Shown here: one piece after another, positions 39,251 to 64,000 of the stretch | Layout: every line of letters starts with the position of its first letter | Position numbering within the stretch: position 1 is the first letter of the stretch | DNA from: Candidatus Omnitrophota bacterium | Lineage (GTDB): Bacteria > Omnitrophota > Gorgyraeia > Tantalellales > Tantalellaceae | Assembly: GCA_018813285.1 (NCBI GenBank) | Contig: JAHJBY010000033.1 | Span: 69,157-133,156, forward strand | DNA: 64,000 nucleotides | Reading direction: 5' to 3' | Made by a program: the position numbers and the translations under genes | The notes under the pieces: generated by a model | Databases searched by the model: none | Told to the model about the DNA's origin: nothing | What the model saw: only the letters and a program-made list of their open reading frames with translations

Positions 39251-39749
39251 TATACCCCTCTATTTTTCGGTATGAAAAATCTTTTTTGACAGCTCTCCCG
39301 ACTGTTTCGATCCTGATCCTAAGACGCACCGCGTTGCCTCCGGTGACCCTCTCCTTCTTTATCACTCTCTCTATGTCCAACATCTCATCTACCAGCGGCT
39401 GCATCTCGGCCGACTTTTCATCGGTAAGCATTTGCTGCATATCGGTTAGATTCGCGATGTCCTGTTCCACGGCGACCATGGTTTTTTTGTTGTTACTGTG
39501 AGCAAGAACAGCCAGCAGTTCTTTATGCCAGGTCTTCCAGTAAATATACCGTTTCGTGTAAAGTTCAATGCTGGGATGGACATCATATTTTTTCAGGGAT
39601 TGATATGTTTTTGGTTTGGCCGGCTCGTCTTTTTTGCTTGAAAACACCTTTTTGAGGCTCGCGCACCCCGTTAACGAACAAAGACAGGCCGCCAGAATAA
39701 AATAAAACGCTATCGTCCTTACCATCATCTTCCTGTTCATAGAAACCAC
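39228..39749 (-). CDS. Hypothetical lipoprotein
   Basis: 173 aa; signal peptide with lipobox LTGC, then charged helical region. Confidence 0.5.
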   Translation of the reverse strand: MVSMNRKMMVRTIAFYFILAACLCSLTGCASLKKVFSSKKDEPAKPKTYQSLKKYDVHPSIELYTKRYIYWKTWHKELLAVLAHSNNKKTMVAVEQDIANLTDMQQMLTDEKSAEMQPLVDEMLDIERVIKKERVTGGNAVRLRIRIETVGRAVKKDFSYRKIEGYIADDFRR

Positions 39750-39758
39750 GCCTTTTTT

Positions 39759-40046
39759 CTAAAACCTTATTTCAAATGTCTCAAACTCGCCCGTATCCGT
39801 TTGCCATTCCACACACGAATCCCCTATATGATCGGACATTCTTTTCGTCAGATCCGTGATAAAAGATTCAAGTTGGCCTCGCGTGCCCTCGCCGACCAAT
39901 AGCACGTTCCCGTTAGACAGATTTTTGACGAATCCAGCCACTCCGGCCGCCTGAGCTATCCTTCTGGCGGAAAATCTAAAACCGACACCCTGGACATACC
40001 CGCTATAAATGACCTGGACCCTTTGAAGTTGGCTCATGAGGCGCAT
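39759..40046 (-). CDS. acyP: Acylphosphatase
   Basis: 95 aa; VQGVGFR and GFV(K)N motifs. Confidence 0.8.
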   Translation of the reverse strand: MRLMSQLQRVQVIYSGYVQGVGFRFSARRIAQAAGVAGFVKNLSNGNVLLVGEGTRGQLESFITDLTKRMSDHIGDSCVEWQTDTGEFETFEIRF

Positions 40047-40405
40047 TTGAACTTGGGTTTCTCGTCACTGTCCTTTAGAATTTGTTCCACTCCTGCTTTT
40101 AGCGCCGGAATATCTTTTCTTGTCGTAGCCCAAACTGCATTGATATCTACTCCAAAGTAATCGTGAATAAGCTTATCCCTCATTTCTGCTATATCCTTCC
40201 ATGGAATATTGGGGTATTTGTTTCGCATGTCAGAGGAAATCTTCTTAGCTGCTTCTCCAATGATTTCGGTCTGCCGGATGACCCCGTCTTGAAGAAGCAT
40301 AGTCTTGGTAAAAATCTCCTCATTAACCCCGGAAAGATATCCTTCGATTCTATCAATCGCGCCTACAATGTGTTTCAGATATACTGTATCATCCCGACTT
40401 TTCAT
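40034..40405 (-). CDS. hepT: HepT-like (DUF86, HEPN) toxin ribonuclease
   Basis: 123 aa; HEPN Rx4-6H region (RDKLIHDY). Immediately downstream of an MNT-family gene. Confidence 0.75.
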   Translation of the reverse strand: MKSRDDTVYLKHIVGAIDRIEGYLSGVNEEIFTKTMLLQDGVIRQTEIIGEAAKKISSDMRNKYPNIPWKDIAEMRDKLIHDYFGVDINAVWATTRKDIPALKAGVEQILKDSDEKPKFKCAS

Positions 40406-40685
40406 AAACTACCTTCATCTCACTTTTAATCCTATCTTTTAAATATGGGCTGATAGAGGCTTCAGTTAATAAATCCGTCTTTCTGCCCAAAACCTCTGAA
40501 AATACTCTTTCAATCCTCACAAGATCAAGCAAGCTCTTGGGTTTTGAAAAACGAGCTAAGAGATCAATATCGCTCTCTTCTGTGAAATCACCTGTTACAA
40601 AAGAACCAAATATCGCCAAGAATACAATATCATTATTTTTGCATATTTCGAGTAACTTCATCCTATTACTACTAACCACTCTCAT
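40389..40685 (-). CDS. mntA: MntA-like minimal nucleotidyltransferase antitoxin
   Basis: 98 aa; GSxxxG...DxD NTase motif (FGSFVTGDFTEESDIDLL). Overlaps hepT start. Confidence 0.75.
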   Translation of the reverse strand: MRVVSSNRMKLLEICKNNDIVFLAIFGSFVTGDFTEESDIDLLARFSKPKSLLDLVRIERVFSEVLGRKTDLLTEASISPYLKDRIKSEMKVVYEKSG

Positions 40686-40723
40686 GATTTCCTCTTCTCA
40701 TTATTCTTACTTCTTTTTACCAA

Positions 40724-40915
40724 TTACCAATTTATCGATAAAAACCTCCGAGTAGAGACTATTTTGGTGGCCGTGGCAATAGCAGGCTCCTTCGCAATTC
40801 CTTGTCCAATTTTTATAAGGATATTATCAGAAACGTCTGCAAAGCGAGCAATTTTCTCCTGCGACAGCCCTTTTTTCATTCTTAGTTTTCCTACATTTTC
40901 CGCAAGCATAATCAA
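40724..40915 (-). CDS. Small XRE-family HTH protein
   Basis: 63 aa; KKGLSQEKIARFADVSDNILIKIGQG fits HTH_3. Confidence 0.5.
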   Translation of the reverse strand: MIMLAENVGKLRMKKGLSQEKIARFADVSDNILIKIGQGIAKEPAIATATKIVSTRRFLSINW

Positions 40916-40983
40916 ACCTTGACAGTCTTACTATTCATGATAGTGTTCTTATGGCGGTATATCCATTCAGCGAACTGCGAAAG

Positions 40984-41061
40984 ATGGTCGGGGCGCTGGG
41001 ATTCGAACCCAGGACCTCCACGTCCCGAACGTGGCACGCTAGCCAAGCTGCGCTACGCCCC
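40984..41061 (-). tRNA. tRNA-Pro (anticodon CGG), CCA encoded
   Basis: Reverse complement reads CGGGGCGTAGCGCAGCTTGGCTAGCGTGCCACGTTCGGGACGTGGAGGTCCTGGGTTCGAATCCCAGCGCCCCGACCA. Cloverleaf with 7-bp acceptor, anticodon loop TTCGGGA, T-loop GTTCGAATC. Confidence 0.85.
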
Positions 41062-41183
41062 GACAACAAAATCCCACAAACGCGGGTATATTATCATGTT
41101 AATAAACATTTTGCAACACATCATTAGTGAAAGGGTTAACACAAAGAAAGCCGTCAGCCATAAGCTATCAGCTTTCAGCTAAA

Positions 41184-46516: not shown

Positions 46517-48175
<1,659 letters not shown>

Positions 48176-48655: not shown

Positions 48656-50500
48656 TCACCCTCTCCTGCGTTCTGCTAACAACACAATAGTTTTTATTTC
48701 ATCTTTATTCGACGCCCTTGTCCATTCTGTATCAAAATCGGGATTCTCTGTAATCTGCGCTATGGCGGCCAGTATCTTCAAATGCAGATTACGTTCGGCC
48801 GGCGGTCCAAGAATGATGAATATAATGTGCGCGAGTTGATCATCGGGAAAAATAACGCCTGACCTGGCACGCACAAGCATGATATGAAAATCTTTCGTAT
48901 CCACCAGAATATGCGGGATCGCCAGACTTTTCCTTATTACGGTACTTGATTCTTCTTCTCGTTTCATAAATTTCTCAAAAAGTCCGCCGGCAGAAAGTCC
49001 CGTCTCTTTCCCGAGCATATCCGATACCATCTTAAAAAAATCTCCGGCCTTAAGCGGCTCTTCTATCTCCAATACGCTGCTTTTTTCGATAAGCCGATGG
49101 AACCTGTCTTCCGTCACATCGTCTCTTTGCATAACGACATCTTTCAACTCGATGAGCAGGTTATCAGACGTCAGCTCTTTATCCCGGGCGATAAACCTTT
49201 CAAGAAGGTATATCAGCGCTGAATCCTGGCTTACACGTTTTTCAACATATATTTTGTACCAGACGAACCCGAAAAAGATAAAGATCATAGTCAGAAAGAC
49301 AATGAACGTCCCCATTTCTATCAGCAGGAAACAACCACCCAATATCCCGGCGATCTGTAAATACGGATAGAAAGGCGAGCGAAATTTCGGTTTATAGCTC
49401 AAGACATGGCTTTCCCTGAACAGTATCAAAGTGAGATTCGCGAAAGTAAAAAGCAATATAAGCAAACTCGACGCCACCTTGACCATAACCTCTAATCTCA
49501 GGAATAGAAGAATGGCGATCATGAAAAAGCCGGTAAAAAGAACCGCCACATAAGGCACGTTACCCCTCGGGCTTATCTTACTAAAGGCAACGGGCAGGAC
49601 CTTATCCCGGCTCATGCCCAGAGGATACCGCGAAGCCGTCATTAAACCGGCATTCGCTGTAGATATGAACGCCAGGAACGCTCCCAGGGCCACTACCAAT
49701 TGCAGCACCCCGCCCCCTATAACCGCGGCACCGTCGGAAATAGGCGTGAGCGAAACCCTGAGGGCGCTCGCGTCAAGATTTCCAACCGTTACGAATATCA
49801 CCAGGACGTAAACGACAGCCGTCACGATAAGGGATGAAAACAACCCGAGAGGAAGATTTCTTTTCGGATCCTTTGTTTCTTCCGCGAGAGCGGCCACTTT
49901 TGTTAAACCACCGTAGGAAATAAAAACGAAACTTGCTGTCGAGAACACCGCGCCGTATCCCGTGGAAAAGAACGGAGAAAAATTAGACGGATTTATTATC
50001 ACTACCCCTTTCACGACATATATCAAAAGGACCGCCAAAAGCCCTATGACAAGTATCACCTGAAATTTTCCCGCCTCTTTTATTCCCACAAGATTAAGCG
50101 CCATGAATAGGACGCAACAGATCAAGGCGATCATGTTCATGGATAGGTTCGTGAACATGCATAGATAAGCTCCCATACCTATCAAGGCGAAAGCGCCTTT
50201 TAAACTCAAAGAAAACCAGGCGCTAAAACCCGCTATCGTGCCAAGAAGCGGGCCAAATCCGCGCATGATGTAGAAGTAATCACCGCCGGCGCGCGGCATG
50301 GCGGTTATCAGTTCGGCTTTACTTAATAGCGCGGGAATACAGAATATTCCCGCGATTATATAGGAAACGATCACCGCCGGCCCGGCCTTCGCGAAAGCCA
50401 ATCCCGGCAAGATAAAAAGACCGGAACTTATCATGGCCCCGGTCGCCACACAAAAGATATCTAGAAAACCGAGTTCCTTTTTCAATGTCCTTTTCTTCAC
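48656..50500 (-). CDS. APC-superfamily amino-acid permease fused to a C-terminal cytoplasmic domain resembling PTS EIIA(Ntr)
   Basis: 614 aa. About 12 TM segments with an APC N-terminus (GFLDIFCVATGAMISSGLFILPG). The C-terminal ~150 aa are soluble with an AIPH motif. Regulatory-domain identity is tentative. Confidence 0.65.
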   Translation of the reverse strand: MKKRTLKKELGFLDIFCVATGAMISSGLFILPGLAFAKAGPAVIVSYIIAGIFCIPALLSKAELITAMPRAGGDYFYIMRGFGPLLGTIAGFSAWFSLSLKGAFALIGMGAYLCMFTNLSMNMIALICCVLFMALNLVGIKEAGKFQVILVIGLLAVLLIYVVKGVVIINPSNFSPFFSTGYGAVFSTASFVFISYGGLTKVAALAEETKDPKRNLPLGLFSSLIVTAVVYVLVIFVTVGNLDASALRVSLTPISDGAAVIGGGVLQLVVALGAFLAFISTANAGLMTASRYPLGMSRDKVLPVAFSKISPRGNVPYVAVLFTGFFMIAILLFLRLEVMVKVASSLLILLFTFANLTLILFRESHVLSYKPKFRSPFYPYLQIAGILGGCFLLIEMGTFIVFLTMIFIFFGFVWYKIYVEKRVSQDSALIYLLERFIARDKELTSDNLLIELKDVVMQRDDVTEDRFHRLIEKSSVLEIEEPLKAGDFFKMVSDMLGKETGLSAGGLFEKFMKREEESSTVIRKSLAIPHILVDTKDFHIMLVRARSGVIFPDDQLAHIIFIILGPPAERNLHLKILAAIAQITENPDFDTEWTRASNKDEIKTIVLLAERRRG

Positions 50501-51333
50501 TCGCCTGAACTCCCCGGTAATTTCTTATCTTCCTCTTTAGATGCCGGATGAAATAATGTTTCTTCAAATCCTACAACCGTTCTATCCACCGTATTCGCCG
50601 CACCGGCAAGCACGTTTCGCGCCCCGGTACCTGCCCTATTTACAACATCCTGGGCCGGTTGCAATATGCCGGAGACCTGTCGCCGTAATACACCGAGATC
50701 AAAACCCGTAAGATTGGCTATCTGGGTGTTCCTTAACGCCCTTACCACGATCAACCGCGCAAGAGAATCCGGATCGGTTATATTCTCGAATTCCTGATCT
50801 ATATGGATGTTGAAAACTTTGATATCGGGTTTCACATCTTTCGAATAATCTTTAAACACCACTTTATCTATTTTTAGTCGAAAAAGATCTATCTGAACCT
50901 TCTTCGGTTCTTCCTTATTTTTCGGTTCTTCGTCTTTTGTTTTTTTGCCCTTAGCCTCTCTGGCAACCTTCAAGGTGTTCAAATTAAGTTCACCGGCGCT
51001 GCTACGCACCACCATGAATTCCGCCACATCAAGCTTCAGCTGCCGCAGGTGCATTTCCCCTTTTAGCATATCCTGAAGATCAAAATCCGCGTAGATCTCA
51101 GGCATATCGATCATTACCTTATCCGGGTATTCCGGAGGATTATAGATCTTGAAATCTTTTATCTCAATAGTCGCATCAATAATACCTACCTTCAGGCTCT
51201 TCATCCCCAATTGAATACCGGTTATGATCTTTACCTCTTTCACGATCACAAACATCAATATGGCGTTTTTCGCTGAGATCAGCGCCGTGATCACGGCCAT
51301 AACTATCAATAAAATGTATATCCATTTTCTCAT
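50497..51333 (-). CDS. Hypothetical membrane-anchored protein
   Basis: 278 aa; one N-terminal TM (IYILLIVMAVITALISA), Lys/Glu-rich linker, conserved-looking C-terminal region. 4-nt overlap with the permease gene. Confidence 0.5.
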   Translation of the reverse strand: MRKWIYILLIVMAVITALISAKNAILMFVIVKEVKIITGIQLGMKSLKVGIIDATIEIKDFKIYNPPEYPDKVMIDMPEIYADFDLQDMLKGEMHLRQLKLDVAEFMVVRSSAGELNLNTLKVAREAKGKKTKDEEPKNKEEPKKVQIDLFRLKIDKVVFKDYSKDVKPDIKVFNIHIDQEFENITDPDSLARLIVVRALRNTQIANLTGFDLGVLRRQVSGILQPAQDVVNRAGTGARNVLAGAANTVDRTVVGFEETLFHPASKEEDKKLPGSSGE

Positions 51334-51521: not shown

Positions 51522-52079
51522 ATGAAAAAAATGTTTATTTTACCCGTATTGTTGATTGGCATTATGCTGGCCCTGACGGCGGCTTACGCTTTCGGGGCGG
51601 GAAGCAAGCAGGACACAGAAGCCAAAAAAGAGGATAAGAAAACAGAAACGGCCGGAACGACTGGAACGACCGAAACGAAAGAACTGACAAAAGAACAAAT
51701 AGTCGAACGTTTGAACCATATTTTCCAATATCGTCTGGATATCCGGGAGGGTGTCCCGGGCATCGTGGTCGACGAAACCGGCCAGGGTGTTGTCGTGGAG
51801 TATAACGGCACACAACTTGAACAACTGGATAAAGACACCTTATCCGGCCTTTCAGGAACGGTCAATGAACAAATATCCCTCAAGAATCTCAAAAATATCG
51901 AGAACCTCCAAAAAACACAGCAACAGCTGAGGAATCTCAGGGAAATAGATAATATCAACCGGACACAACAAATGCTTCGCCGGCAAAGAGCTGTTTCGCC
52001 GAATATCCCAAAAGTATACACTCCACCGAAAATACCGAAGACATACAACGCGCCAAAGACCTACAAGGCACCTAAATGA
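51522..52079 (+). CDS. Secreted hypothetical protein with C-terminal PKxY-type short repeats
   Basis: ORF track 51453..52079. Real start ATG 51522 after GGAGGAGGAG. Signal peptide MKKMFILPVLLIGIMLALTAAYAFG. Thr/Lys-rich linker. C-terminal repeats (IPKVYTPPKIPKTYNAPKTYKAPK). Confidence 0.55.
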   Translation: MKKMFILPVLLIGIMLALTAAYAFGAGSKQDTEAKKEDKKTETAGTTGTTETKELTKEQIVERLNHIFQYRLDIREGVPGIVVDETGQGVVVEYNGTQLEQLDKDTLSGLSGTVNEQISLKNLKNIENLQKTQQQLRNLREIDNINRTQQMLRRQRAVSPNIPKVYTPPKIPKTYNAPKTYKAPK

Positions 52080-52177: not shown

Positions 52178-55100
52178 TTACAACGCCACAGCGGTCTTTG
52201 TGATGGCATCGATCTCCTGCCGGATCTCTTCGCCTATGTTCAGCCTGGTGATCTTAATCAACAGGTGAAGAATATCTTTTAGCCCTTTTTCTAATCGCTT
52301 TAAGGTTTCTTCCGCGCATTCTACGGCCATTATCCGGGGCGCGTCCTTCTCATCCAGTGTCCTCTTAAGAAGGCTCACCACTGCCACTTCCGGCAATATC
52401 CGATTTATCCTCTTTCCTGCGGCGTCATCCGTTAATACATTCTTTCCCAAAAGCACAAAACCGGGAACATTCTCTTTCCCTTCCGCGCGCATATAGTTGA
52501 TCAAATTTTCTGTTAAGGCCCCGGATTCGACCGCTGCCATTGAAACGTCTGCAGGCCGTATATTCACTCCCTTGACTTCCAGGCTTTTCAATACCTCTTT
52601 AACCGTATTGGATATATTTTCCTTCTTCCGGTTTGGATCAAGCACAACAGGTATGACATTCTTTAAACTTATGATTTCTTCCGGGATCGGAACATCACGC
52701 GTTGTGGCGACACATATATAAAAACGCTTATCCGCAAATGCCTTTATCGCGGGAATCATTTCGCCTATGTCAACACCCGGAAATCTTGTATCAATGACAA
52801 TCGCCTTCGGAACCTCAGGGATCAGCTCCATCAAACTCTTCTCCATACCCTTGATCTTTTCATCCTCATGCTTTGCCGCCATATTTTTGAAATCCAGAAG
52901 ATCGCCAAACGGCATTTTCGGGTTGTCATTAAGATATTTCACAAATCCGGAATGATAGCCGAGAAATCTGTCCCTGAGATCCGCCTTTTCTTCATCAGAA
53001 AGGCTGTCATCACGATCTGCGGTAACCGCTTCGCCAGCTGATTTGCAATACTCGTCGGCCCATTTTTCGTTATCACCCGGGACTATGGAAGGAAATCGAA
53101 ATTCTTCCCCGGCCAATGCCCTGGGATAATAATCCCGCATGATAGAACCCAACACATCATGATGAGCCTCATCCGGCAATACATCCTGCAATACATTAAG
53201 TATATTTCCCATGTCATCAAGAGTCTTGCCTTCCAGGGCCATCATCGCGCCTTCATCCAGGCCGCCGGCATACGGATGAATAAGGTATGGGAACATATTC
53301 GCAAGAGCCTGGATCTCCGCGATCCTTACCGCTTCCTTTATCGCGTCTTCCATATCCGTTTCTTCTCTCATTTCAATGAGCACATGCGGCTTTAAGCCAG
53401 CTTCCGTCGCGATCTTTTCGAAAGCTTCTTTATTTTTTACCGCGATAAATTCTATATTCGCGTAATTTTTTATGATCGGATATTTTTTCTCCATAGCGCC
53501 TTCATCCGCGCCCACGATCCCGATAACGGCTACAGGCGTGATTACCGGCGGCATCTTTTTCGTCGTCGGCGGCAAGGATGCCGGTCCTGACCTTATCGTA
53601 GCGTAAGGAACGGCTTTTCTCCCGACTACCGTATTTGTAATAAAAGCGGTTAGATTTACCACTGAATGAAGCGCAACAGCAACAGTTAACAACTGCCACA
53701 CACCGGTCTCAATCACGAAAGGCATAAATATATTTAATCCGGTAACAAGGAGCGCTGTTTTCCACCCGTGTTTATGCAACAGCACGAAAAATATCCCGGA
53801 TAATATCTGAAGAGACGCTAAAATAAGCACAGATGTCTGAACCGAAGGGCTCACCCCCATAAGCCCTGTGATAACAGGCGTAAGACACTGCGTTAAAAGA
53901 AGAGGAACGCCGAAGTATACCATCCTCTCTCGGAAAGGCGCCAGCAGCAAATGCTCCATACCGAATTTAGTCTGATTCCATAAAATGGAATCATCTTTCC
54001 CTATCCCAAGTTTGTTACGGGCACTATTTACGACAGACGAATAAGGTGCCTCTTTATGCATGGCATAAAACACCTGAAACGCGCCCGCCCTGTCACCTTT
54101 ACCCAAATAAGCATGGACCAACAATCTCCGCGCTTTTAGTCTGAACTCGCCTTTTAAAGACTTATCAAAAAATGGTATAGCGCCATCAAAATCCCTCGCG
54201 GCGAGATTCATTAAAGCCAGGCAAAAATATAAATTAGTTTTTAATTCTTCTTCCGCAAACTCGATTTCTCCCAGGTTATTTACCGCATTTTGAATCGAAT
54301 CAAATAACAACACTTTTTCTCTGATTGTTTTTATCTCTGGAAGGAATGTTCCTTTACCAGTAATAGCCCGGATAAGAGTTTCCGAAAACCTGGCATTAAG
54401 ATGACCAAGGAGAGTGCTTATAAACAGTTTGTCTTTTTCCCCTTGCCTCGAAAGCATCGCCGATAACACGGCGTGATACGCGCCGTCATTCAGAAAGAAT
54501 AAGTTAATAAGCTCCTTTGCCAATGTCTCGTTAAACGTTTTTTCGGAAATCGCTTTAATCCCATCAATTAAGACCTTATCGTTTATAAGCCGCTTTCTTA
54601 AGTTTTTCCTCTTTCTCTCTCTCAACCCGTCGTCAAACAATACGGATTTCCCGATCTCCTTAATGCAAATTTCAAACACGCTGTCCGCACTCTTACTGTA
54701 GGGAATCGTTTTTAGCAGATAAACCGACAGATTAAATACCTTATCGTTTTCATTCCGCACCTTCCAGAAAGTGAACATCTTCTCCAGCAACGCCGGCAAT
54801 TCTTCCAGGACAGTTTCGAACTCATCGCTCTTAAGACCCCCTATAACCGCAGCAACATCATCGTATGCTTTCGCTTTGCCAGAATCCGCATCTTTCTGTA
54901 ACTTTTCAACACGCCGCTGTTTCCTCTCCCGCGTTTCCTGTGACACTTTCCTGCCCGATTCTATCCGGTACACTTCTTCATGGCATGATATAATATCTCC
55001 GTATATCTGTATCTTTTCCCGCGCGTTTTTCCCTTTCGCGGATAATGTCAAAATATGCCCTTTCAATAAATCGTCCATCCGGGCTTTGTCGCCTCCTTTA

Positions 55101-58100
55101 AATACAAGCTCCTTTGACAAATCCTTCAATCTTTCACTTCCGGGAGCTATCTCTTGCGCCTTCCTTAGCAAAATCTCAGCCCTCACAAGCTCGCCATTCT
55201 GCAGCGCCCTCGCAGCCATCCCGAGAATAAGATTTACCGTCGGTTTTTTATCAGCATCCTCGAGCCCGGAAGGTTCAAGTTTCTGTTTTTCGGCAACCGC
55301 AACGTTTTTCTTCAGGCTTAACTTCCTCCTTTCAAGAAGACCCCGGACCTGTTCGAGCCTTTTTTTTCTTTCGGCTTCTTCTTTTTGATCTTCGCTCACT
55401 TTTTGAACGGCTTCTTCACGATCCTTTTTCATATAAGGTTTTTCAAGAATTTCTTTCTCTCTCGAACCTAACAAATCCTCCAGGCCGTCTTCCCGTGACC
55501 GTATCCAGGAAATGATCTCTCTTCTGCGCCTTTTTTCTATACTCGCATCCTTTCCTTCCTTTTCCAACTGCCGCAATTCGGTTTCCAGTCTCGCTCTCTC
55601 ACCCTTGAGTAGTGTTATCCCTTTACTTATTTCTTTTTCTTCTTTTTCGAACCGCGCCAAATCCTGCCTAGCTTTCGCTGATCCTGCTATTGTCCGGTTT
55701 ACATTCTTTCTAATTTTGTTAATCTTATCGACCCTTTCCTTCACTTCTCCCCTTGTCTCACCGGCCAGGTCATCTTCCGCGTCCAATTCTTTCAATACGC
55801 GACTTGCTTCTTCGAATTTGCCCTCATCAAAATATGCCTCGGCCAGGTTTAACCTGTTTTCCGGCGTGGAACTGAGTTCTGCCGCCTTCTTTAAATCTTC
55901 TATCCTATCCCCTGCCTTTTTCTGTCCCTTTGCCCGATCAACAAAAATATCTGCCATCTGTTGTCCCGCTGTCTTCCGTGCAAAATCGGCATCCAACGCT
56001 ACCGCTTCTTCATGCCGCTCGATCGCTTCAGCTGCCGCTTCTTCATTCCGTTCGACCGCTTCGGCTTCCGCTTCCCTGCCTTCTTCCAGCGCCAGGTCCC
56101 TGAGACCGACTTTCGCAAGAACGCAGCGTTTATCCATCCATAACGCCCGATAGAAGCTTTCTTCTGCTTTCCGAAAATCCCTAACTTCTCCCTTAAGATA
56201 CGTCAGTCCTTTAAGCACGGTAAGCCGCGCCAGTAACGGCCTGTTGTTTCTTTGTTTTCTGCTGGATAAATCAGAATACGCCCCCTGCAACACGTCGATA
56301 CATATACCTATTGCAAAACTGTCCGTGCGAAACGTGTCGGGAAAAAACTCATACATCTTTTCAAGATAATCAACTCCTTTTTCCACAAAAGCCGCATCCC
56401 TGTCCACCCCGGCAGAATACGCTCCCATATGTTCTATCACACTCTTATACATGCCGCGAAGTTCATCGATAAAGCCGCTGTCCTCTTTCAACTTCTCATC
56501 TAACTGCCTCGCTTTTTCCATGTTATCTATTGCTAAATCAAAAAGTTTTTGAGATTCCGTCATGTTTTTCGCCGAAACTTCGAATTCCGCCAGCCCCCGT
56601 CCGGACAGCGCCATAAACCTGTAAAGCTCGGCTTTTTCATAACCGGACTTTTCGGCTTTCAGGAAAAGTGAATAGGCCTTACTGAAATCATTCCTTTCAT
56701 ACGCTTCGATACCTGACCTAAACAAACTTTCCGCTTTAACTTCTTCCCCTGCTTTCGCGGCACGCCAGAAGCGAAAGCGAGCCCGCATCCTCCTCCCCCG
56801 GAACCTGTGTATATAACCCCGGATCATATACGCGTACTGACGGCACGCTTTAATATTTTCGAGTTTCTTAATGGCAAGTGTCAGGGCTCCAAGATCAACA
56901 CTCGTCGGCACTATTCCGCGGACAAGCATGGTTTCTCTTATTTGCCCCATTAAAAGCCGAAGAAGCTCCGTTTTATCTTCCACCGAGAGAAGTTTAGGCT
57001 CAAGGACCTCGATAATAAGTTTTCCGTTATTAAGACCAAACCGTTCATTCAATAAAACAATGCTCACTTTTTTTGCTCTATGAGGAGCACTGAACATCAC
57101 CTTCTTGAAACCATCATCCGAGATAAAATACTGCACCCTGGATGGAATACTCTTCCCCAGCCCTCCAAGTTCTTCTATCCGACTGGTCCAAGAGACGAAA
57201 AGTTCAATAATCTGGTCGTCATGCCTCGAGTCATACCTGAGCCTTATCGCTTCTTTAAGGTTTTCCGCGACAGTTTCCTCGACGTCCCGCGTTTCGTCCG
57301 AAGCAAGCCCCAGTTTAGCCTTCAGTAAATAAAACAACATCCATTCGTCAATGTTTTCAACATCTCCCGCTCTAAACTCATTCAGAAGCTCTTCTGACTC
57401 TTTGATCCTTGTCCTGGCAATTTTTGAGACATCCGCCTCTTGCAGCAACAGTTCGGCAAGTATCAATTTGGAGCTGTTCAAATATTCTCCCAGCTCTGTC
57501 TTTTTGACGCTTATAACCCACCTTAAGAGCGAAATCGCGCCCGCCCTTTTTTCGCCGTCCAGCCCCCGTTCCCTGAGGATATAGACAAGTTGTTCATACG
57601 AAATATCCTTCATGGAATCAAATGTTCCCGTGATATCAGTATTAAGCGGGCCGACTTCCTTTTCGAGCTTACCTATGCGCCCCCTAACCGCCGCCGTCAT
57701 ACCGGCTCTTTTCGGAATTTTCTCGAATTTTTTAATATATTCCTCTAACGCTTCCTTCTTCTGTCCGAGTTTCCATGTTTCCCGGGCTTTTTCGGCCATG
57801 ACAGAAATATTTCTCTCTCTGACTGCCTTCTTTATCTTTTCCTTTCTTGTCACGACATATTTTTCGATTTCCGCGTCTTTCTTTCTTTGCAATTCATTCA
57901 GTTTTACACGATGTTCCTGAGCTTTCGCGTTATTCTTAACCGCGGTGTCATCGCTCTTTTCGTACAACCCGATCAATTTCTCATGAGCGTCTGCGGCGTC
58001 CTCATCATTAAGACCTTCCCCAACAGCCTTTTCCAGATCATCCGCTGCCGGCCGTGTTCTGCCGTCGGCCAGATGCAAAAGCCCCCGTTTAAAATGTGCC

Positions 58101-61100
58101 CTGCCGTTTGACTGATTCAAAGATAAAGCTTTTTCATAATCTATCAATTTTTGTGCACGCGTCATGGGCGCGACTTCCGCGTATAAAAGATATGCGTTTG
58201 ACAATTCCCCAGTAACATCCGGGGCGTTTTCTCTGCCGCTTAACTTTTTCATAATAGATTTCGCTTTCCCGAACACCCTTTCTTTATATTTATCATCGGG
58301 TATGGCCTTCCCCTGTTCTATCAGCGCCTGTGCCAGCTTAAACCGGGCGGCATATCTCTTGCCGGCGCTGATATACCGCAAAGGAGCCTGCCACCACCCA
58401 TGCAGGGCTACGATCCTGCTGTGCGCCTTACCGGTAATCCTATCAAAATGTGATTTGAGTTCTTTTTTCCTGGTTTCATCCTCAATATTCTCGATATGTT
58501 CTTTAGCCGAAGAAACTTCATGGAGGACCTCCCGCAAGCGTTGTATTTTCGAGGCGGGTCTACGCAATACATCCCTCCATTTCCATTCCATTCTTTTTTC
58601 TATGCGCGCCTTCAGCGCTTCCACAAGTTTTGTTTTTATCTCGTCCAATTTATCTTTTGTTTCGTTTTTCTCTTTCTCATCAGTTATCTCATCGGGTTTG
58701 ATATTTTCTATCGCCTGCCGCGCGTACGTAATGACCTTCTCCTGTTCTTTCACTTTCCACGCGAATTCAATAACTTTCTCATAAAGCCCTGCATCTTTTC
58801 CATCCGCCTCGATCGCCTTGTCGTAATACTCAAACGTTTTCTTTCTATCATCGATAGGCCTGAAAATGAGATATTTACAGACTAAATACGCAACAATGAG
58901 TGTCCCGAGAGTTCCGATAACATAGGGCATTATTCCGTGCAGATGTGTACCGGCGGTTTCAAGCATGCCCATAAACTGCAGCACACCGACTCTGCGGCAA
59001 TACGACAACAACAGTAGCAAAGATAACAAAATAATGACTCCTCCAGCGCAAAGAACGACACTTTTCACGTCGCTATACGTCCTGTATCTGTTCATATAGC
59101 CTTCGGCGATCCCTGCATATGTCTCTTTTGAAACGTCTTTCAGCTTCTCGCATTTTCTGAAATCTGAAAATGCTTTTCCCTTCCAGTTCTTGTCACGATT
59201 TATCTCCGCCCTCAGAAGCCGCGCCTTAAGTTCCGCGTCGTTCAACCCGCCGGGCAACCTCTTCTTCATCCTGAACGAAAGAAACTTCCTTAACCTGGAA
59301 AAATCCTTCCATCTCAAGACCTCATTCAACTCTTCCAATGCCTCGTCCGTTCTGCCCACCAAAAGCTTAAGTGCTTCCGCTTTCAGCACCATCGCCTCCG
59401 CCGCGTAAGAAAGCACTCTTTTCGCCGATTCGACTGCTTTAAGACCCTCATCAGCGTATTCACTCGTAGCATCCGTATTCCCTTCCTTCGATTCCTCTTC
59501 GCTTTTTCCATTATACGCGGCCGCGAGAGCGATATAAGCTTTATGCAGTTCCAACGGATTATAAAGTATCCTCTCGAGTTTTATTGTAAGTTTGTGTGCT
59601 TCAAAATTGTATTTATCCTTTTCCACGGCTTTTTTCGCTTCAGCGAGCGCTTCCTCAAAATGGTTGAGGCTAAAATGCGCCCGGGCAAGCTTGTAATGCG
59701 CCTCGCTGTTTTCCGGGTCAAGTTTCACGGCCTCTTCGTACATAGCAATGGCGGAAAGGAGATTACGCGCGCGTTTTATCATTCCTTCTTCACCAAACTT
59801 TTCATATAAACCTTCTTCGTCCACTCCCGCAAACACATCCGCCTCATTGATCAACTGCTTGAAATCGCTTTTTGACAGCTCATAAGACGCTAATTCGTCT
59901 TCGGCGCTCTTTCTTTCCGTTTCAGGAATGATTTGAGTTTGTCTCGCGAGAAAACACTTTTTCTCTTCACCCGTCATATCATGCCAGGACTTCTGTTTCT
60001 TATCCGCATGACACGTCTTTATGTCCGTGTAAAGCACTTCAAGATCACTGATAAGTTTCTCGACATAAAGCGCTTTAAGATCATCGGCAAGTTTTTCAAC
60101 CACGTTCATCTTGCCTTTGCCTTTAGCGATAACATCTAAAATGGCGTCTTCAAGCCCCGGTTCTTCTGCCAAACGCGTAAGTTTAAACACGTCTTTTATC
60201 ACTTCCCGCAGAAATTCGTCAAACTCCGGTAATATCTCTCGACTTGACAGGTTTGACTTTTCGTACGCGAGGTCGATAAAACCTTCAAGTGCCGTAACGC
60301 GCGCCAGGCGGCTGATCTTACCGTTCATAAAAACAGCAAGCAGCAATCTCGCGAGTTTGCCGGTCTTGTCGTCTTTTTTAAGTTTTTCTGTTACATATTC
60401 CAGGAGTTCAAGCACCGGAAAATCCACTCCTTCGATCAATACTTTGTCCTTCTGTGCGCTCGCAAACGCCTCCGCCATCGCGTCAATCCCAACAACCTTT
60501 TTTGCCAGCCGTAGCCGCAGGTCCCGAAATCTTTCCTCAAGCATCCTTCGTTTCTTCCTGTCCGTTTCCGTATGTTTGATCCTTTCGAGTCTTTTGTCTA
60601 TTTCCCCTGTCAGCTCCACAAGCTTCTCTTTATAGCCATAAATATAATCCAACAACTTGTCGGCGACTTCCTCGGCGACCTTCTTCCCGTCGTCAGAATC
60701 GTCCGCCAATTCAACGGCATCAAGATAAGCGTTGCGCGCCCGTTGCAAAGCATCATCCCCCTTAGCATCATTTTCACCCTTTTCGGCTTTTCTTTTCTTT
60801 TCCTTCTCCTGCGCCTCGGCAAACTCTTTACTTGATTTTTCGACTTTTTTCTTCAATGTTTCTTTCTCTTCTTCCAATTTATCGAGTTTTTCTTTTATTT
60901 TTTGAACCCGTGCCTCTTTTTCTTTTATCGCTCCATCATTGCCTTCTTTTTGCTTACGAACTCCGAATATTTCCCCCTTAATTCTGCTTTGTTCTTCTAA
61001 TTGCAAAGCAAGTATCGCCTCATCAAGCTTCCCCCGAAGCTGATCGATTTCTTTGTCTAAAACGTCCCGTTCGCGTTTTAATCCATCCATTTCTCTTTGC

Positions 61101-64000
61101 AATTTACCTCGTTCTCCTGTCACCTCAACCAGATCCTTTTCCACCCTGCTTTTAAAGTCTTCATCCTCTCTTAACACTCTTTCCGCTTCCGCCCGCGCCC
61201 GCGCGGCTTCGATATAATCACCCGCCATCGCGTCAGCGTATTTTTTCCTGACAGAGGCATCATTCGGCGCTATTTTGACCGCACGCCTGAGCGCCCTGTA
61301 ATAAGCACTCAATGGATCACCCACATCGGTAACAACGGTCTGTTGGGAATGTAGCGCCAGGTACTTGTTGAGAAGGGCATTCGTCTCTTCAGCTTCAGCG
61401 TTCTTGCCCTCCCTGGCGTAAAGTCTTTCCTTCACTTTATGGGCAATGATAACGCGGTTGTTAAGCATGAAAAGTCTTTTTGTGAGAAGTTCCTTTTCTT
61501 CCTTCTGTAACGATTCCTCGAGCTCTTTTTCAAGTTCCTCCACCTCTTCCTTAAAAAGCTCTACAACCTTTCCATACTCCTCATTCGCCTCCTTATATTT
61601 TCCTTCCGTCTCAAATGTCCGCACCCGGAGTATATGCAATTCAAACTGCCTTTCTTTTGCCGTCCAAAGACGGATTCTTGCCTGTTTCTTTTCGGCTTCT
61701 TTAAACTCCATGACTGCCGTGTTATACTCATCTAACAAACTCTCTATCTTATCCAGAATCTGCCGGTTATTATCCGCAACTCGTTTCCTTTCAGGATCCC
61801 CGTTCAAGTCGGCGTAGACAATCCCGGCAAGAACATTCCTGACCGTTATGAGAATACCGGCCTTCTTTAACCTTATCTCATCGCTGCCTGTCTCCCTTAT
61901 TTCCAAATGAAAAGAAATAGGCCCAAACGCTCCGGCATCGTTAAAAATGCCCAAAAACCTGACCGCTTTTTCATAATTCCCGGCTTTGGTCATGTCACCT
62001 CTATTTTTTATAAATTTTTCAAAAAATTTCATAAACTTATCCACCCTGTCAATCCTGTCGCCCCGGATACCTAATACTTGTGTAACTATTTTCGTTTTTT
62101 CGTTATCGGAAATATCCGTATCCGGGGTGGAAATAACCTTTTCTAACATCATATCAAGCACCTCATCAAAACTGAACTGCCCGTCTTCGTCGCCTACCAG
62201 TTTGTCTTTATGCCATTGGATATGACCGATAATTACGCCAATAATTCCCGGGGACGGGCCTTCCATCCTTTCTATCTCACACTTAAGGAGTTTTACGAGA
62301 AAAGGTTTTCTCGTCTTCATCTCTTCCTTCAGCAACAAGTCTTTTACTTTTTTCAGCCTTGCCGTCGCATTGGCAAAGTTTTCAATATGAACATCTGTCA
62401 AAAGTCCCACGATCCTTTCCTCGTACCTCTTTTTTTCTTCTTCGGCCGCCATTTCCGCCAGGAGCGTATAAGTTTCTATCAAATCCTCGAGATCCGGTTC
62501 AGACATTATCGTTTTAGGCTTGCCATCTTCAAGTTTCTTATCTAACATCTTTTCCATACAAAACGCTTTTGCCATAAGAAGAAGCCGACTGTCAGGATGA
62601 TCTCTTAACTCTATATTCACCTGACCAAGGACATTTTTTATCGTCTCAAGCGTGATCCTTCCGTCATTCAACAAAACCTCAAAAACTCCAAATGCCGCAT
62701 CCCTCACTTCATCAGAATCCGATAAGAAGGGCCCAATTATATTGTTATAAACGGCATTTGCGTTATTAATCCAATTTTTTTCTCTTTTACGATAATTTTC
62801 ATCTCCCTCTCCTTCTTTTCTCGATAAATGCAGAAACCTGGATTTTTTCATCCATCCTAACCACGCCAAACGTAAATGGTCGCGTATTTCATTGACGTTT
62901 TCTATCCCGGCCGGCACGATTTCATTTGCAATCCTTTGTGCTTCCTTGAACTCCACAATTACAGCGCCGATAAACTTATCAAGATTACTCGTCTGCTCAA
63001 TGATGTCTTCAAAAACAGGAACAATTTTTTCCTCGACAATTTTCTTCACGGCTTCAGGGTTCTTGACCCCTTCCAGCTGGGCCTTGATCTCTTCCTGAGC
63101 AAGTTTTTTATATGCTTCTATGAGCTTTTTCCGTATTCCTGTCAATCTTGTCTTTTCGCTGTCAAGGTCGTCTTCTTTCCATGTTTTTTCCCCTTTTTCC
63201 CGGCTCTCCCCGACAATCTCCAGTTGTTCTGTAAACGCTTTTTCGGTCTCCGCCACTTCTCTGCGGACCTGCCAGAGGGCTGAAAACATCTGTTTTTCTT
63301 TTACTCCGGATAATTTGCCCAGCACATCCTCATGTAGCGTGGCTAAAACGTCATGACCCTTCTTGTTTTTTTCAAGCCACTCGACAAACCCCTCAAGATA
63401 TTCTTTTCGCCGTCTTCTGGCCGCCTTGACCCAAAGAATTCCCCCGTGCAACGTGTCGTAATCATCCGCACTGAAAAGCAAACGCGCCAAGCTTTCAAGA
63501 TTACGGACAGCCAGCTCTATTCTTTTCTCATGTTCCTCTTTTTCCTTATCGTCAGTGATCTCATTTGATTTCTCTTTCAGCGTCTTTACGTCTCTCTGCC
63601 CTTCGCTTAATACCTTTCTTACATGACTTTTTTGCCGGAAAATCCATTTGAAAAAGCTCCCGCGCTCTATCCTGACAGCGGTAAGGTTGCGTCGGATGTC
63701 ATCAAACAGTCTACGCCCTTCCTCATCAAGCGTTCCTCTCTCTTCTTCCGTCACGTCAAACCGCCTGAGCGCGTAACCCGCGACCATCCTGCCGGCGGCG
63801 AGGTTAATAACCCGCACTACGCCGTTACAAACAGCGTGAAGAAGCACGGCTATCGCGAAATACAGGATATACTGCGTATAAACTCCGGTAAGAAGACCCG
63901 GTAATAAATCGAAAAGGGGTGATATGTTACCCATAACGGCGGGAATGGATATATTGAGAAAGACCCCTAAAACGGCTGGGGGAAGGCGCGTTCCCCACAT
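52178..64000 (-). CDS. Giant multi-domain membrane protein (C-terminal >=3,940 aa; N-terminus beyond window). TPR-like repeats, extensive coiled coil, two TM clusters.
   Basis: Single uninterrupted 11.8-kb reading frame running to the window edge. Multiple TPR-like units (e.g. SEAHYKLARAHFSLNHFEEALAEAKKAVEKDKYNFEAH). Long K/E-rich heptad segments. TM clusters near 58.9-59.05 kb and 53.56-53.96 kb, and in the first in-window residues. A ~460-aa C-terminal domain of unknown fold. Confidence 0.8.
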   Translation of the reverse strand: MWGTRLPPAVLGVFLNISIPAVMGNISPLFDLLPGLLTGVYTQYILYFAIAVLLHAVCNGVVRVINLAAGRMVAGYALRRFDVTEEERGTLDEEGRRLFDDIRRNLTAVRIERGSFFKWIFRQKSHVRKVLSEGQRDVKTLKEKSNEITDDKEKEEHEKRIELAVRNLESLARLLFSADDYDTLHGGILWVKAARRRRKEYLEGFVEWLEKNKKGHDVLATLHEDVLGKLSGVKEKQMFSALWQVRREVAETEKAFTEQLEIVGESREKGEKTWKEDDLDSEKTRLTGIRKKLIEAYKKLAQEEIKAQLEGVKNPEAVKKIVEEKIVPVFEDIIEQTSNLDKFIGAVIVEFKEAQRIANEIVPAGIENVNEIRDHLRLAWLGWMKKSRFLHLSRKEGEGDENYRKREKNWINNANAVYNNIIGPFLSDSDEVRDAAFGVFEVLLNDGRITLETIKNVLGQVNIELRDHPDSRLLLMAKAFCMEKMLDKKLEDGKPKTIMSEPDLEDLIETYTLLAEMAAEEEKKRYEERIVGLLTDVHIENFANATARLKKVKDLLLKEEMKTRKPFLVKLLKCEIERMEGPSPGIIGVIIGHIQWHKDKLVGDEDGQFSFDEVLDMMLEKVISTPDTDISDNEKTKIVTQVLGIRGDRIDRVDKFMKFFEKFIKNRGDMTKAGNYEKAVRFLGIFNDAGAFGPISFHLEIRETGSDEIRLKKAGILITVRNVLAGIVYADLNGDPERKRVADNNRQILDKIESLLDEYNTAVMEFKEAEKKQARIRLWTAKERQFELHILRVRTFETEGKYKEANEEYGKVVELFKEEVEELEKELEESLQKEEKELLTKRLFMLNNRVIIAHKVKERLYAREGKNAEAEETNALLNKYLALHSQQTVVTDVGDPLSAYYRALRRAVKIAPNDASVRKKYADAMAGDYIEAARARAEAERVLREDEDFKSRVEKDLVEVTGERGKLQREMDGLKRERDVLDKEIDQLRGKLDEAILALQLEEQSRIKGEIFGVRKQKEGNDGAIKEKEARVQKIKEKLDKLEEEKETLKKKVEKSSKEFAEAQEKEKKRKAEKGENDAKGDDALQRARNAYLDAVELADDSDDGKKVAEEVADKLLDYIYGYKEKLVELTGEIDKRLERIKHTETDRKKRRMLEERFRDLRLRLAKKVVGIDAMAEAFASAQKDKVLIEGVDFPVLELLEYVTEKLKKDDKTGKLARLLLAVFMNGKISRLARVTALEGFIDLAYEKSNLSSREILPEFDEFLREVIKDVFKLTRLAEEPGLEDAILDVIAKGKGKMNVVEKLADDLKALYVEKLISDLEVLYTDIKTCHADKKQKSWHDMTGEEKKCFLARQTQIIPETERKSAEDELASYELSKSDFKQLINEADVFAGVDEEGLYEKFGEEGMIKRARNLLSAIAMYEEAVKLDPENSEAHYKLARAHFSLNHFEEALAEAKKAVEKDKYNFEAHKLTIKLERILYNPLELHKAYIALAAAYNGKSEEESKEGNTDATSEYADEGLKAVESAKRVLSYAAEAMVLKAEALKLLVGRTDEALEELNEVLRWKDFSRLRKFLSFRMKKRLPGGLNDAELKARLLRAEINRDKNWKGKAFSDFRKCEKLKDVSKETYAGIAEGYMNRYRTYSDVKSVVLCAGGVIILLSLLLLLSYCRRVGVLQFMGMLETAGTHLHGIMPYVIGTLGTLIVAYLVCKYLIFRPIDDRKKTFEYYDKAIEADGKDAGLYEKVIEFAWKVKEQEKVITYARQAIENIKPDEITDEKEKNETKDKLDEIKTKLVEALKARIEKRMEWKWRDVLRRPASKIQRLREVLHEVSSAKEHIENIEDETRKKELKSHFDRITGKAHSRIVALHGWWQAPLRYISAGKRYAARFKLAQALIEQGKAIPDDKYKERVFGKAKSIMKKLSGRENAPDVTGELSNAYLLYAEVAPMTRAQKLIDYEKALSLNQSNGRAHFKRGLLHLADGRTRPAADDLEKAVGEGLNDEDAADAHEKLIGLYEKSDDTAVKNNAKAQEHRVKLNELQRKKDAEIEKYVVTRKEKIKKAVRERNISVMAEKARETWKLGQKKEALEEYIKKFEKIPKRAGMTAAVRGRIGKLEKEVGPLNTDITGTFDSMKDISYEQLVYILRERGLDGEKRAGAISLLRWVISVKKTELGEYLNSSKLILAELLLQEADVSKIARTRIKESEELLNEFRAGDVENIDEWMLFYLLKAKLGLASDETRDVEETVAENLKEAIRLRYDSRHDDQIIELFVSWTSRIEELGGLGKSIPSRVQYFISDDGFKKVMFSAPHRAKKVSIVLLNERFGLNNGKLIIEVLEPKLLSVEDKTELLRLLMGQIRETMLVRGIVPTSVDLGALTLAIKKLENIKACRQYAYMIRGYIHRFRGRRMRARFRFWRAAKAGEEVKAESLFRSGIEAYERNDFSKAYSLFLKAEKSGYEKAELYRFMALSGRGLAEFEVSAKNMTESQKLFDLAIDNMEKARQLDEKLKEDSGFIDELRGMYKSVIEHMGAYSAGVDRDAAFVEKGVDYLEKMYEFFPDTFRTDSFAIGICIDVLQGAYSDLSSRKQRNNRPLLARLTVLKGLTYLKGEVRDFRKAEESFYRALWMDKRCVLAKVGLRDLALEEGREAEAEAVERNEEAAAEAIERHEEAVALDADFARKTAGQQMADIFVDRAKGQKKAGDRIEDLKKAAELSSTPENRLNLAEAYFDEGKFEEASRVLKELDAEDDLAGETRGEVKERVDKINKIRKNVNRTIAGSAKARQDLARFEKEEKEISKGITLLKGERARLETELRQLEKEGKDASIEKRRRREIISWIRSREDGLEDLLGSREKEILEKPYMKKDREEAVQKVSEDQKEEAERKKRLEQVRGLLERRKLSLKKNVAVAEKQKLEPSGLEDADKKPTVNLILGMAARALQNGELVRAEILLRKAQEIAPGSERLKDLSKELVFKGGDKARMDDLLKGHILTLSAKGKNAREKIQIYGDIISCHEEVYRIESGRKVSQETRERKQRRVEKLQKDADSGKAKAYDDVAAVIGGLKSDEFETVLEELPALLEKMFTFWKVRNENDKVFNLSVYLLKTIPYSKSADSVFEICIKEIGKSVLFDDGLRERKRKNLRKRLINDKVLIDGIKAISEKTFNETLAKELINLFFLNDGAYHAVLSAMLSRQGEKDKLFISTLLGHLNARFSETLIRAITGKGTFLPEIKTIREKVLLFDSIQNAVNNLGEIEFAEEELKTNLYFCLALMNLAARDFDGAIPFFDKSLKGEFRLKARRLLVHAYLGKGDRAGAFQVFYAMHKEAPYSSVVNSARNKLGIGKDDSILWNQTKFGMEHLLLAPFRERMVYFGVPLLLTQCLTPVITGLMGVSPSVQTSVLILASLQILSGIFFVLLHKHGWKTALLVTGLNIFMPFVIETGVWQLLTVAVALHSVVNLTAFITNTVVGRKAVPYATIRSGPASLPPTTKKMPPVITPVAVIGIVGADEGAMEKKYPIIKNYANIEFIAVKNKEAFEKIATEAGLKPHVLIEMREETDMEDAIKEAVRIAEIQALANMFPYLIHPYAGGLDEGAMMALEGKTLDDMGNILNVLQDVLPDEAHHDVLGSIMRDYYPRALAGEEFRFPSIVPGDNEKWADEYCKSAGEAVTADRDDSLSDEEKADLRDRFLGYHSGFVKYLNDNPKMPFGDLLDFKNMAAKHEDEKIKGMEKSLMELIPEVPKAIVIDTRFPGVDIGEMIPAIKAFADKRFYICVATTRDVPIPEEIISLKNVIPVVLDPNRKKENISNTVKEVLKSLEVKGVNIRPADVSMAAVESGALTENLINYMRAEGKENVPGFVLLGKNVLTDDAAGKRINRILPEVAVVSLLKRTLDEKDAPRIMAVECAEETLKRLEKGLKDILHLLIKITRLNIGEEIRQEIDAITKTAVAL

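Follow-up and report, generated by a model that had tools for sequence, protein, structure and literature searches.

The stretch of DNA analyzed here, referred to as the window, comprises 64,000 nucleotides (nt) from a Candidatus Omnitrophota genome (assembly GCA_018813285.1, contig JAHJBY010000033.1), and its far end carries, on the minus strand, the C-terminal part of a giant gene (positions 52178–64000). This is a genuine 8,293-codon gene of an uncultured groundwater Omnitrophota bacterium. Its product belongs to a small, undescribed family of proteins of 4,000–8,300 amino acids (aa) that has been seen so far only in Omnitrophota. Within the visible part, two long charged arms lie between membrane modules, and the four-helix modules are, judging from their conserved motifs, most likely divergent glutamic intramembrane protease domains of the CPBP/Rce1 type. 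Taken together, these features would fit a scaffold that is pinned to the membrane, faces the cytoplasm and has intramembrane protease-like domains built in, the visible part being half of an inner-membrane protein. We give this reading an even chance of being right.

An authentic gene of 8,293 codons

On the minus strand, positions 52181–64000 form a single open frame of 3,940 codons that closes with TAA at 52178–52180 and runs off the window at its other end. An earlier reading of the same DNA, made from the letters alone and referred to here as the sequence-only reading, had described just such an uninterrupted, incomplete frame of ~11.8 kb continuing past the window edge. Residue i of the fragment corresponds to window position 64000-3(i-1). 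Though the listing of open reading frames (ORFs) shows the frame as complete, the window-edge ATG encodes an internal Met. Over the same stretch, the remaining two minus-strand frames contain 230 and 312 stops, and the composition across the three codon positions of the giant frame is skewed in a coding-like manner. From base composition alone, the chance of an open frame this long is ~1e-114.

By means of the GroEL gene of the window (46517–48160), the same locus was located in public assemblies. Both ENA contig k141_89068 (166 kb) and Logan contig SRR2544004_6248 (36.8 kb) extend upstream of the start, and in both the gene is called at 8,293 aa. The window therefore carries residues ~4354–8293, the C-terminal 47%, and the total length that the earlier reading had proposed to find by extension is thereby given. 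Compared with these two loci and with a third from another sample (SRR10598178), the window shows 0–2 mismatches, none of which falls within the giant gene. One of the source runs, SRR2544004, is a deep-groundwater biofilm metagenome (PMC5364579). At NCBI the protein is present only as pieces of 1,200 aa (MBU1656766.1) and 1,891 aa (MBU1784673.1), labelled Candidatus Omnitrophica/Omnitrophota bacterium, because the contigs of the metagenome-assembled genomes (MAGs) of this species are fragmented.

An artefact, whether from chimeric assembly, repeat collapse or an open frame that does not code, is hardly credible. Collapse or expansion of repeats had been raised in the sequence-only reading and is not borne out. 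The sole DNA repeat in the giant gene consists of two tandem 33-nt copies (55998–56063, 85% identity) encoding an EAEAVERNEEA-like duplication, and a self-BLASTP of the fragment found no internal protein repeats. Since repeats are lacking and the DNA is identical in independent assemblies, collapse, expansion and chimerism are excluded as far as sequence data allow. No evidence favoring an artefact was found. Speaking against it are the chance estimate given above, the three independent assemblies without mismatch over the shared stretch of the gene (with the same call of 8,293 aa in two of them) and homologues that are collinear over the entire length at 28–34% identity.

Architecture of the visible fragment

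Hydropathy reveals three membrane clusters in the fragment, at residues 1–80, 1647–1716 (two helices) and 3336–3473. The features of the fragment are listed below.

52178–64000, minus strand: C-terminal part of the giant gene, 3,940 codons plus TAA stop (open frame, 8,293-aa calls, identical DNA, collinear homologues)
63761–64000, minus strand: C-terminal part of the first four-helix CPBP-like membrane domain, truncated at the window edge; residues 1–80, with HxxxN (H55..N59)
58853–63760 as listed, minus strand: arm 1, charged and helical, residues 81–1646, ~1,570 aa, ending at the hairpin (composition, hydropathy, heptad scan, Pfam, homology to relatives P0019 and P0009)
58853–59062, minus strand: two-helix membrane hairpin, residues 1647–1716 (hydropathy peaks of 2.84 and 1.96)
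53996–58852, minus strand: arm 2, charged and helical with tetratricopeptide repeats (TPRs), residues 1717–3335, ~1,620 aa (Pfam, heptad scan, 33.5% identity to P0019)
53582–53995, minus strand: second four-helix membrane domain, residues 3336–3473 (AlphaFold model)
53927–53929, 53774–53788 and 53654–53668, minus strand: motif residues E3358, F3405/H3409 and H3445/N3449, respectively
52181–53560, minus strand: C-terminal alpha/beta domain, residues 3481–3940, ~460 aa (profile match at E 9e-136, AlphaFold model)
52181–52252, minus strand: conserved amphipathic tail, the last 24 residues (residue counts across 43 sequences)

The fragment is rich in E, L, K, A and R (together 49%) and poor in Pro (2.2%). 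Charged residues (E, K, R, D) account for 35% of it and for 35–55% of the arms. In a crude scan, heptad-periodic windows are ~10-fold enriched relative to shuffled sequence and occur at residues 737–839, 919–1155 and 2721–2847, the latter two being the longest. The very long K/E-rich coiled-coil stretches described in the sequence-only reading are thus supported, while two of its other statements need adjustment. TPRs are indeed present, as one solid pair at residues 1413–1471 that exceeds the Pfam cut-offs (TPR_19, 44.9 bits with a cut-off of 25; TPR_11, 38.3 with 26.8; TPR_16, 35.5 with 32.7) and one marginal repeat at ~1955–1982 (TPR_17, 24.6 bits with a cut-off of 24.4); “many” such units was an overstatement, as the other sites, about four in arm 2 (~2702, 2923, 3257 and 3289), are weak and below threshold. 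Likewise, at least two clusters of 3–6 transmembrane helices had been proposed, which holds for the four-helix domain at 3336–3473 and for the cut four-helix copy at the window edge but not for the middle cluster of two helices, making three clusters in all. Apart from TPRs, a Pfam search of the fragment finds nothing, the last 500 residues being without a match, and NCBIfam adds nothing.

A family conserved along the whole fragment

An exhaustive HMMER search of 1.84 billion cluster representatives with residues 3330–3940 as the query returned 43 related clusters, 30 of them at an E-value (E) of 1e-10 or better. Many members are giant, with lengths that include 7,715, 7,557, 7,055, 6,114, 6,031, 4,901, 4,340 and 3,429 aa, with P0035 (7,715 aa) as the longest relative found. 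In the relatives, the matched module invariably occupies the very C-terminal end of the chain, and all NCBI-named members come from Omnitrophota, including Candidatus Tantalella remota and Candidatus Makaraimicrobium thalassicum. A word-indexed protein search with the C-terminal 611 aa and with two family alignments discussed below (A1 and A3) gave no match, not even to the protein itself, and the family is seemingly absent from that index. Scans of GTDB genomes and JGI metagenomes with the first 400 residues of the fragment also gave no match.

Conservation is not confined to the C-terminal module: P0019 and P0009 follow the fragment collinearly over its full length at 28–34% identity. At its beginning, residues 3–290 align with P0019 976–1263 (E 1.5e-35), residues 343–995 also align with P0019, and residues 59–992 align with P0009. 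Further along, with low-complexity masking off, residues 1008–3338 match P0019 2090–4392 at 33.5% identity over 2,406 columns (E = 0) and residues 1075–3339 match P0009 4913–7053 at 31.5% identity. The order and spacing of the modules are conserved as well: a four-helix domain, ~1,570–1,680 aa, the hairpin, ~1,600–1,620 aa, a second four-helix domain and the C-terminal domain. Module borders fall at 80, 1647, 1716 and 3336 in the window protein and at 1046, 2723, 2790 and 4395 in P0019. The hairpin aligns with those of P0019, P0009 and P0035 and has conserved flanks (RKFLSFRMKK... before it and FEYYDKAIE... after it). Conservation and collinearity of the whole fragment therefore argue for selection on the entire polypeptide.

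The four-helix membrane domain

Alignment A3 comprises 19 copies of the four-helix domain, of which the other copies are only 18–37% identical to the window copy. Its invariant columns are E3358, P3366, F3405, H3409, H3445 and Y3466, while P3355 and N3449 are conserved in at least 90% of the copies, N3449 being replaced once by Asp. An AlphaFold model built on A3 has four helices and is of high quality (predicted local distance difference test, pLDDT, 90.3; predicted template modeling score, pTM, 0.83). In the model, the conserved Glu (E3358) lies in helix 1, FxxxH closes helix 2 and HxxxN lies in helix 4, with the motifs spanning 91 residues. This layout matches the core of the CPBP (type II CAAX protease) family, in which EExxxR occupies one membrane segment and conserved histidines lie in two others (PMC6588880).

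The canonical EExxxR is present in the sister copies of P0019 (884–1046) and P0042 (643–779) only. The residues retained in the window copy, E3358, H3409, H3445 and N3449, presumably match the Glu, the two His and the Asn with which Rce1 performs catalysis. Residues 16–80 of the fragment match the last third of the membrane-domain profile (positions 90–139, E 1.4e-6), including H55..N59, and their alignment falls inside the EExxxR-bearing copy of P0019, identifying them as the remainder of a first four-helix copy cut by the window edge; motif 1 of this first copy falls outside the window. One relative, P0032, is named CPBP family glutamic-type intramembrane protease at NCBI and contains a bona fide PF02517 domain (E 1e-10) in a different part of its sequence. 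A regular-expression search for canonical CPBP genes across the homologue loci found none.

Several results weigh against the assignment. The complete EExxxR is not found in the window's C-terminal copy, where motif 1 reads E-R-M-V-Y-F; in the C-terminal copies generally, the second Glu and the Arg are unconserved and the motif is E-R/Q-x-x-Y-F. The window copy has no hit to PF02517 at E up to 10 and none in NCBIfam, and the best family copy, that of P0042, reaches 15.1 bits with a cut-off of 22.4. In an hhalign comparison with a single canonical CPBP sequence, nothing but the HxxxN helix aligned, at a probability of 0.2%. Foldseek found no match in the PDB for the model of the membrane domain. 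On balance, the four-helix domain likely belongs to the CPBP superfamily as a divergent branch, and it is not filed here as a member of PF02517.

Membership in the superfamily need not imply catalysis. The CPBP-like domains could be catalytically dead anchors like SpdC and APH-1, leaving the protein as only a scaffold on which partner enzymes dock, which would be compatible with the scaffold proposed here. The best structural matches are two non-proteolytic proteins of the CPBP fold, SpdC and APH-1B (PMC7387801), and motif 1 is degenerate in the C-terminal copy, with E-R/Q-x-x-Y-F in place of EExxxR. Conversely, SpdC is without key catalytic residues (PMC7387801), unlike the four-helix domains of this family, in which the Glu, both His and the Asn are invariant or nearly so over the 19 copies. 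Conservation of these four residues at such low identity is hard to explain without chemistry at the site. Dead anchors are, in our estimate, a rather doubtful alternative, and we infer that the four-helix domains would act as glutamic intramembrane proteases.

Topology and a proposed role

The distribution of positive charge provides an orientation for the membrane domain. Averaged over the 19 copies, K+R residues number 3.3 in the N-terminal flank, 2.8 in loop 2 and 2.3 in the C-terminal flank, compared with 0.1 for each of loops 1 and 3; by the positive-inside rule, this places both ends of the domain in the cytoplasm. Helix counts are even: the hairpin has two helices and the second domain four; the first, cut domain presumably has four as well, since the P0019 copy (884–1046) spans the whole four-helix profile. 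With even counts, both arms and the C-terminal domain are located on the same side, which would be the cytoplasm. From this topology, each arm of ~1,600 aa would be tethered to the membrane at both ends.

The proposed role builds on this arrangement. Two K/E-rich, TPR-containing helical arms of ~1,600 aa each, anchored on either side by modules whose helices are even in number, would arch over the inner membrane on its cytoplasmic side as long hoops and could function as a scaffold or a membrane skeleton. The four-helix domains would probably cut a substrate at the cytoplasmic face of the membrane, either the giant protein of which they are part or client proteins bound to the TPR arms.

The protein may instead be a polyprotein precursor, with its CPBP-like domains or other proteases cleaving the 8,293-aa product into pieces of ~1,600 aa and a free C-terminal domain. 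Its mature units would in that case be proteins of ordinary size. The protease-like domains do lie exactly at the module borders, and the same idea has been raised for the peptidase domains of other Omnitrophota giants (10.1101/2023.11.21.568195). In addition, several assemblies encode the C-terminal domain as a separate ORF directly after a long ORF: locus L006 (1–12157), where the frames overlap; L091 (1–7167), with a 72-nt gap; and L092 (174–7155), a long-read contig of 2x coverage. The overlapping frames and the low coverage make these splits look like sequencing frameshifts or coverage errors, and they could also represent a genuine split form. Apparently stand-alone C-terminal domains (P0013, P0033 and P0023) were rejected as such for a similar reason, each directly following a long ORF and thus most likely being part of a giant split by a frameshift or low coverage. 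No conserved cleavage motif was identified in the family. A polyprotein is quite improbable.

The N-terminal half and an extracellular alternative

The part of the protein beyond the window can be approached through full-length relatives. A divergent SecA_DEAD domain occurs at ~1300–1800 in P0035 (7,715 aa, E 3e-15) and in P0009 (7,557 aa, E 2e-5), P0035 having a P-loop_SecA domain in addition, and the starts of P0009, P0028, P0025 and P0042 resemble signal anchors. Occasional additional domains are Metallophos in P0025 and an M48 peptidase and an ABC1 kinase in P0042. By homology with P0009 and P0035, the N-terminal 4,353 aa of the window gene probably carry an N-terminal anchor and a divergent SecA-like ATPase. 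The SecA_DEAD domains and signal-anchor-like starts link the family to the SecA-bearing giants of Omnitrophota (10.1101/2023.11.21.568195; 10.64898/2026.06.07.730766).

These same features lend themselves to a different interpretation, in which the protein is an extracellular apparatus for attachment or predation, with arms outside the cell that bind prey or host surfaces and a SecA-like domain in the N-terminal half that drives export. Restriction of the family to Omnitrophota, the signal-anchor-like starts, the SecA_DEAD domains and a small secreted protein as a conserved neighbor (described below) are consistent with this view, and such roles have been proposed for giant Omnitrophota proteins (10.1101/2023.11.21.568195). 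Moreover, the recognized domains of other Omnitrophota giants have mostly been placed outside the cell (10.1101/2023.11.21.568195), which counts against a cytoplasmic scaffold. The membrane domains themselves point the other way. The positive-inside pattern makes both flanks of the four-helix domain cytoplasmic, and with them arm 2 and the C-terminal domain, and the even helix counts (4, 2, 4) keep the arms on one side. The arms are highly charged, and Pfam and NCBIfam detect no adhesion, lectin, dockerin or glycoside hydrolase domains in them. For the protein as a whole an extracellular apparatus seems unlikely, and it could still hold for the N-terminal half alone.

The C-terminal domain and its tail

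Residues 3481–3940 match the family profile at E 9e-136 and contain a series of conserved blocks (IGIVG, PYLxGLD, RHExIA, AIVIDxR, ICVITD, ISIATGE, ANFVIAG and RINRLIP). Invariant residues in alignment A1 are D3737, R3739, P3870 and R3880. An AlphaFold model covering both the membrane and the C-terminal domain is of moderate quality overall (pLDDT 72.8) and improves to 80–90 over the last 190 residues. In it, the C-terminal domain begins with a small three-strand unit, is helical in the middle and closes with a Rossmann-like half. Compared with the PDB by Foldseek, this two-domain model retrieved only generic Rossmann-like proteins (eIF2B, SDR, MTHFR), none at E ≤0.001. Profile searches of the PDB, Pfam and NCBIfam found no relative of this domain, in keeping with the sequence-only reading, which had seen no motif it recognized in these ~460 residues. 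Two more specific interpretations were dropped: an eIF2B-like domain, for which the structural matches are weak, and a VWA/MIDAS-like domain, given that the invariant motif is D-x-R instead of D-x-S-x-S and that there is no VWA hit.

The position of the tail is precisely fixed. Counted over the last 26 residues, all 43 family sequences align without gaps from the C-terminus, and they end in A-x-[S/A]-[L/V/A]-COOH; the last residue is L, V or A and the penultimate residue S or A in 43/43. So precise a C-terminus suggests that the free end itself is recognized. At its most speculative, this could mean that the CPBP-like domain adjoining the C-terminal domain recognizes or clips the protein's own tail, A-x-S-[L/V]-COOH, in a prenyl-independent form of CAAX-type processing in cis that would control the assembly or release of a cytoplasmic membrane skeleton built of helical hoops of ~1,600 aa in ultra-small Omnitrophota cells, with the secreted neighbor as a periplasmic partner. 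This combination of ideas is a long shot.

Neighboring genes and the rest of the window

Two small genes lie next to the 3' end of the giant gene.

51522–52079, plus strand: 185-aa secreted protein, convergent with the giant gene, with a signal peptide, a conserved core (residues 59–181) and short C-terminal PKxY/PPKTY repeats
50497–51333, minus strand: 278-aa N-terminally anchored AsmA/DUF748-like protein

The two genes diverge from each other and fit the divergent pair of a secreted repeat protein and a membrane-anchored protein that had been described earlier. The 185-aa protein has no Pfam match. By tblastn with a check by hidden Markov model (HMM), a homologue is encoded directly downstream of P0009 (locus L087, 28864–29505; 42% identity, E 3e-25) and another near P0012 (L090, 11264–11773; E 4e-15), and none was found near P0035, P0025 or P0013. 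The giant protein may have the secreted neighbor as its partner in the periplasm. Positions 48656–50500 (minus strand), immediately downstream of the AsmA/DUF748-like gene, encode an APC-family amino-acid permease fused to a C-terminal PTS EIIA-2 domain, a combination that looks regulatory.

The genes for P0035 and P0025 (L088, 949–7651; L089, 955–7447) lie directly downstream of a Bat-like operon (VWA, VWA, BatD and a small TPR protein) and upstream of genes for a glycogen phosphorylase and a UvrD helicase. Locus L087 (1–28674) contains giants of 7,655 aa and 7,557 aa in tandem with an RHH/PIN toxin-antitoxin pair between them; the visible C-terminal 1,679 aa of the upstream giant are without the family's four-helix and C-terminal domains.

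The remainder of the window is an ordinary bacterial chromosome that includes genes for FtsI, MurE, MurF, MurC, FtsK, PNPase, a histidine kinase, a riboflavin operon, GroES/GroEL and the permease-EIIA fusion. Among GTDB species representatives, the closest GroEL proteins come from Omnitrophota MAGs at only 71–72% identity. Almost all ORFs of at least 250 aa in the window, and all of those with an assigned function, are on the minus strand. Every 2-kb bin has a negative GC skew, with the most strongly negative values (-0.19 to -0.31) over the giant gene. At 37734–41062, a tRNA-Pro(CGG) gene (40985–41062) is followed by a nucleotidyltransferase/HepT toxin-antitoxin pair (40034–40685), an acylphosphatase, a metallo-beta-lactamase-fold protein and a XerC/D-type recombinase (37734–38618). 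GC content falls to 0.445 at 40–42 kb. The region may be a small integrated element, or the recombinase may simply be a housekeeping Xer gene.

Comparison with known systems

Proteins of this size are rare in general, as the sequence-only reading had noted; within Omnitrophota they are not, thousands of proteins above 10,000 aa having been reported from the phylum (10.64898/2026.06.07.730766; 10.1101/2023.11.21.568195). Because giant membrane proteins are common there, size alone would not surprise a specialist. The closest comparison is with the SecA-bearing Omnitrophota giants (“Archaeovorin” and related proteins; West-Roberts et al. 2023), which share with the family the phylum, a very long single ORF, several membrane regions, TPRs, large stretches without recognizable domains and, through P0035 and P0009, a divergent SecA_DEAD domain. 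The differences lie in size and content. The gene described here encodes 8,293 aa, whereas the published studies analyze proteins of >10,000 or >30,000 aa (10.1101/2023.11.21.568195; 10.64898/2026.06.07.730766). Unlike the “Archaeovorin” type (>30,000 aa), the visible 3,940 aa have no glycosyl transferase, hydrolase, methyltransferase, NUDIX or dockerin content, and the family is defined by its C-terminal module, the four-helix CPBP-like domain followed by the alpha/beta domain of ~460 aa. CPBP is not mentioned in either study (10.1101/2023.11.21.568195; 10.64898/2026.06.07.730766), and a literature search found no work combining CPBP with Omnitrophota.

Set beside CPBP/Rce1-like proteins of PF02517, for which structures of Rce1 (4CAD), SpdC (6U0O) and APH-1 have been solved, the four-helix domain is alike in its core, with Glu in helix 1, FxxxH in helix 2 and HxxxN in helix 4. 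Its motif span of ~91 residues is close to the 93 positions of PF02517, and sister copies bear the canonical EExxxR. It differs in that neither the Pfam nor the NCBIfam models recognize the window copy, motif 1 has other residues in place of its second Glu and its Arg, and only four helices are present as opposed to the six core segments common to Rce1 and APH-1 (PMC6588880). In addition, the CPBP-like domains are embedded at least twice in a giant protein instead of forming stand-alone enzymes of 200–300 aa. If the CPBP assignment is true, this would be an unusual case of intramembrane protease domains repeated inside one giant polypeptide. A third comparison, with long TPR/coiled-coil scaffolds, is prompted by the NCBI label of P0009 (“tetratricopeptide repeat protein”). 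The TPR pair, the marginal and weak sites and the heptad-periodic, K/E-rich stretches agree with such a protein, but TPRs make up only a small part of the length, and neither the membrane modules nor the conserved C-terminal domain are captured by the label.

The giant genes of Omnitrophota are a recognized puzzle. Published work has dealt mostly with proteins >10,000 aa that are mosaics of enzyme domains or tandem repeats and that are, for the most part, unique in sequence. What is new here is an alignable family below the 10,000-aa range of the published surveys, with a conserved C-terminal module and probable repeated domains of the CPBP type. In contrast to the published giants, this family keeps its modules in a fixed order and its arms at conserved lengths. 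It also has a membrane domain modelled with confidence, in which a putative catalytic tetrad is present, a C-terminal domain without relatives in Pfam or the PDB, and a conserved secreted neighbor, and it thereby offers concrete handles on the function of at least one class of giant bacterial protein.

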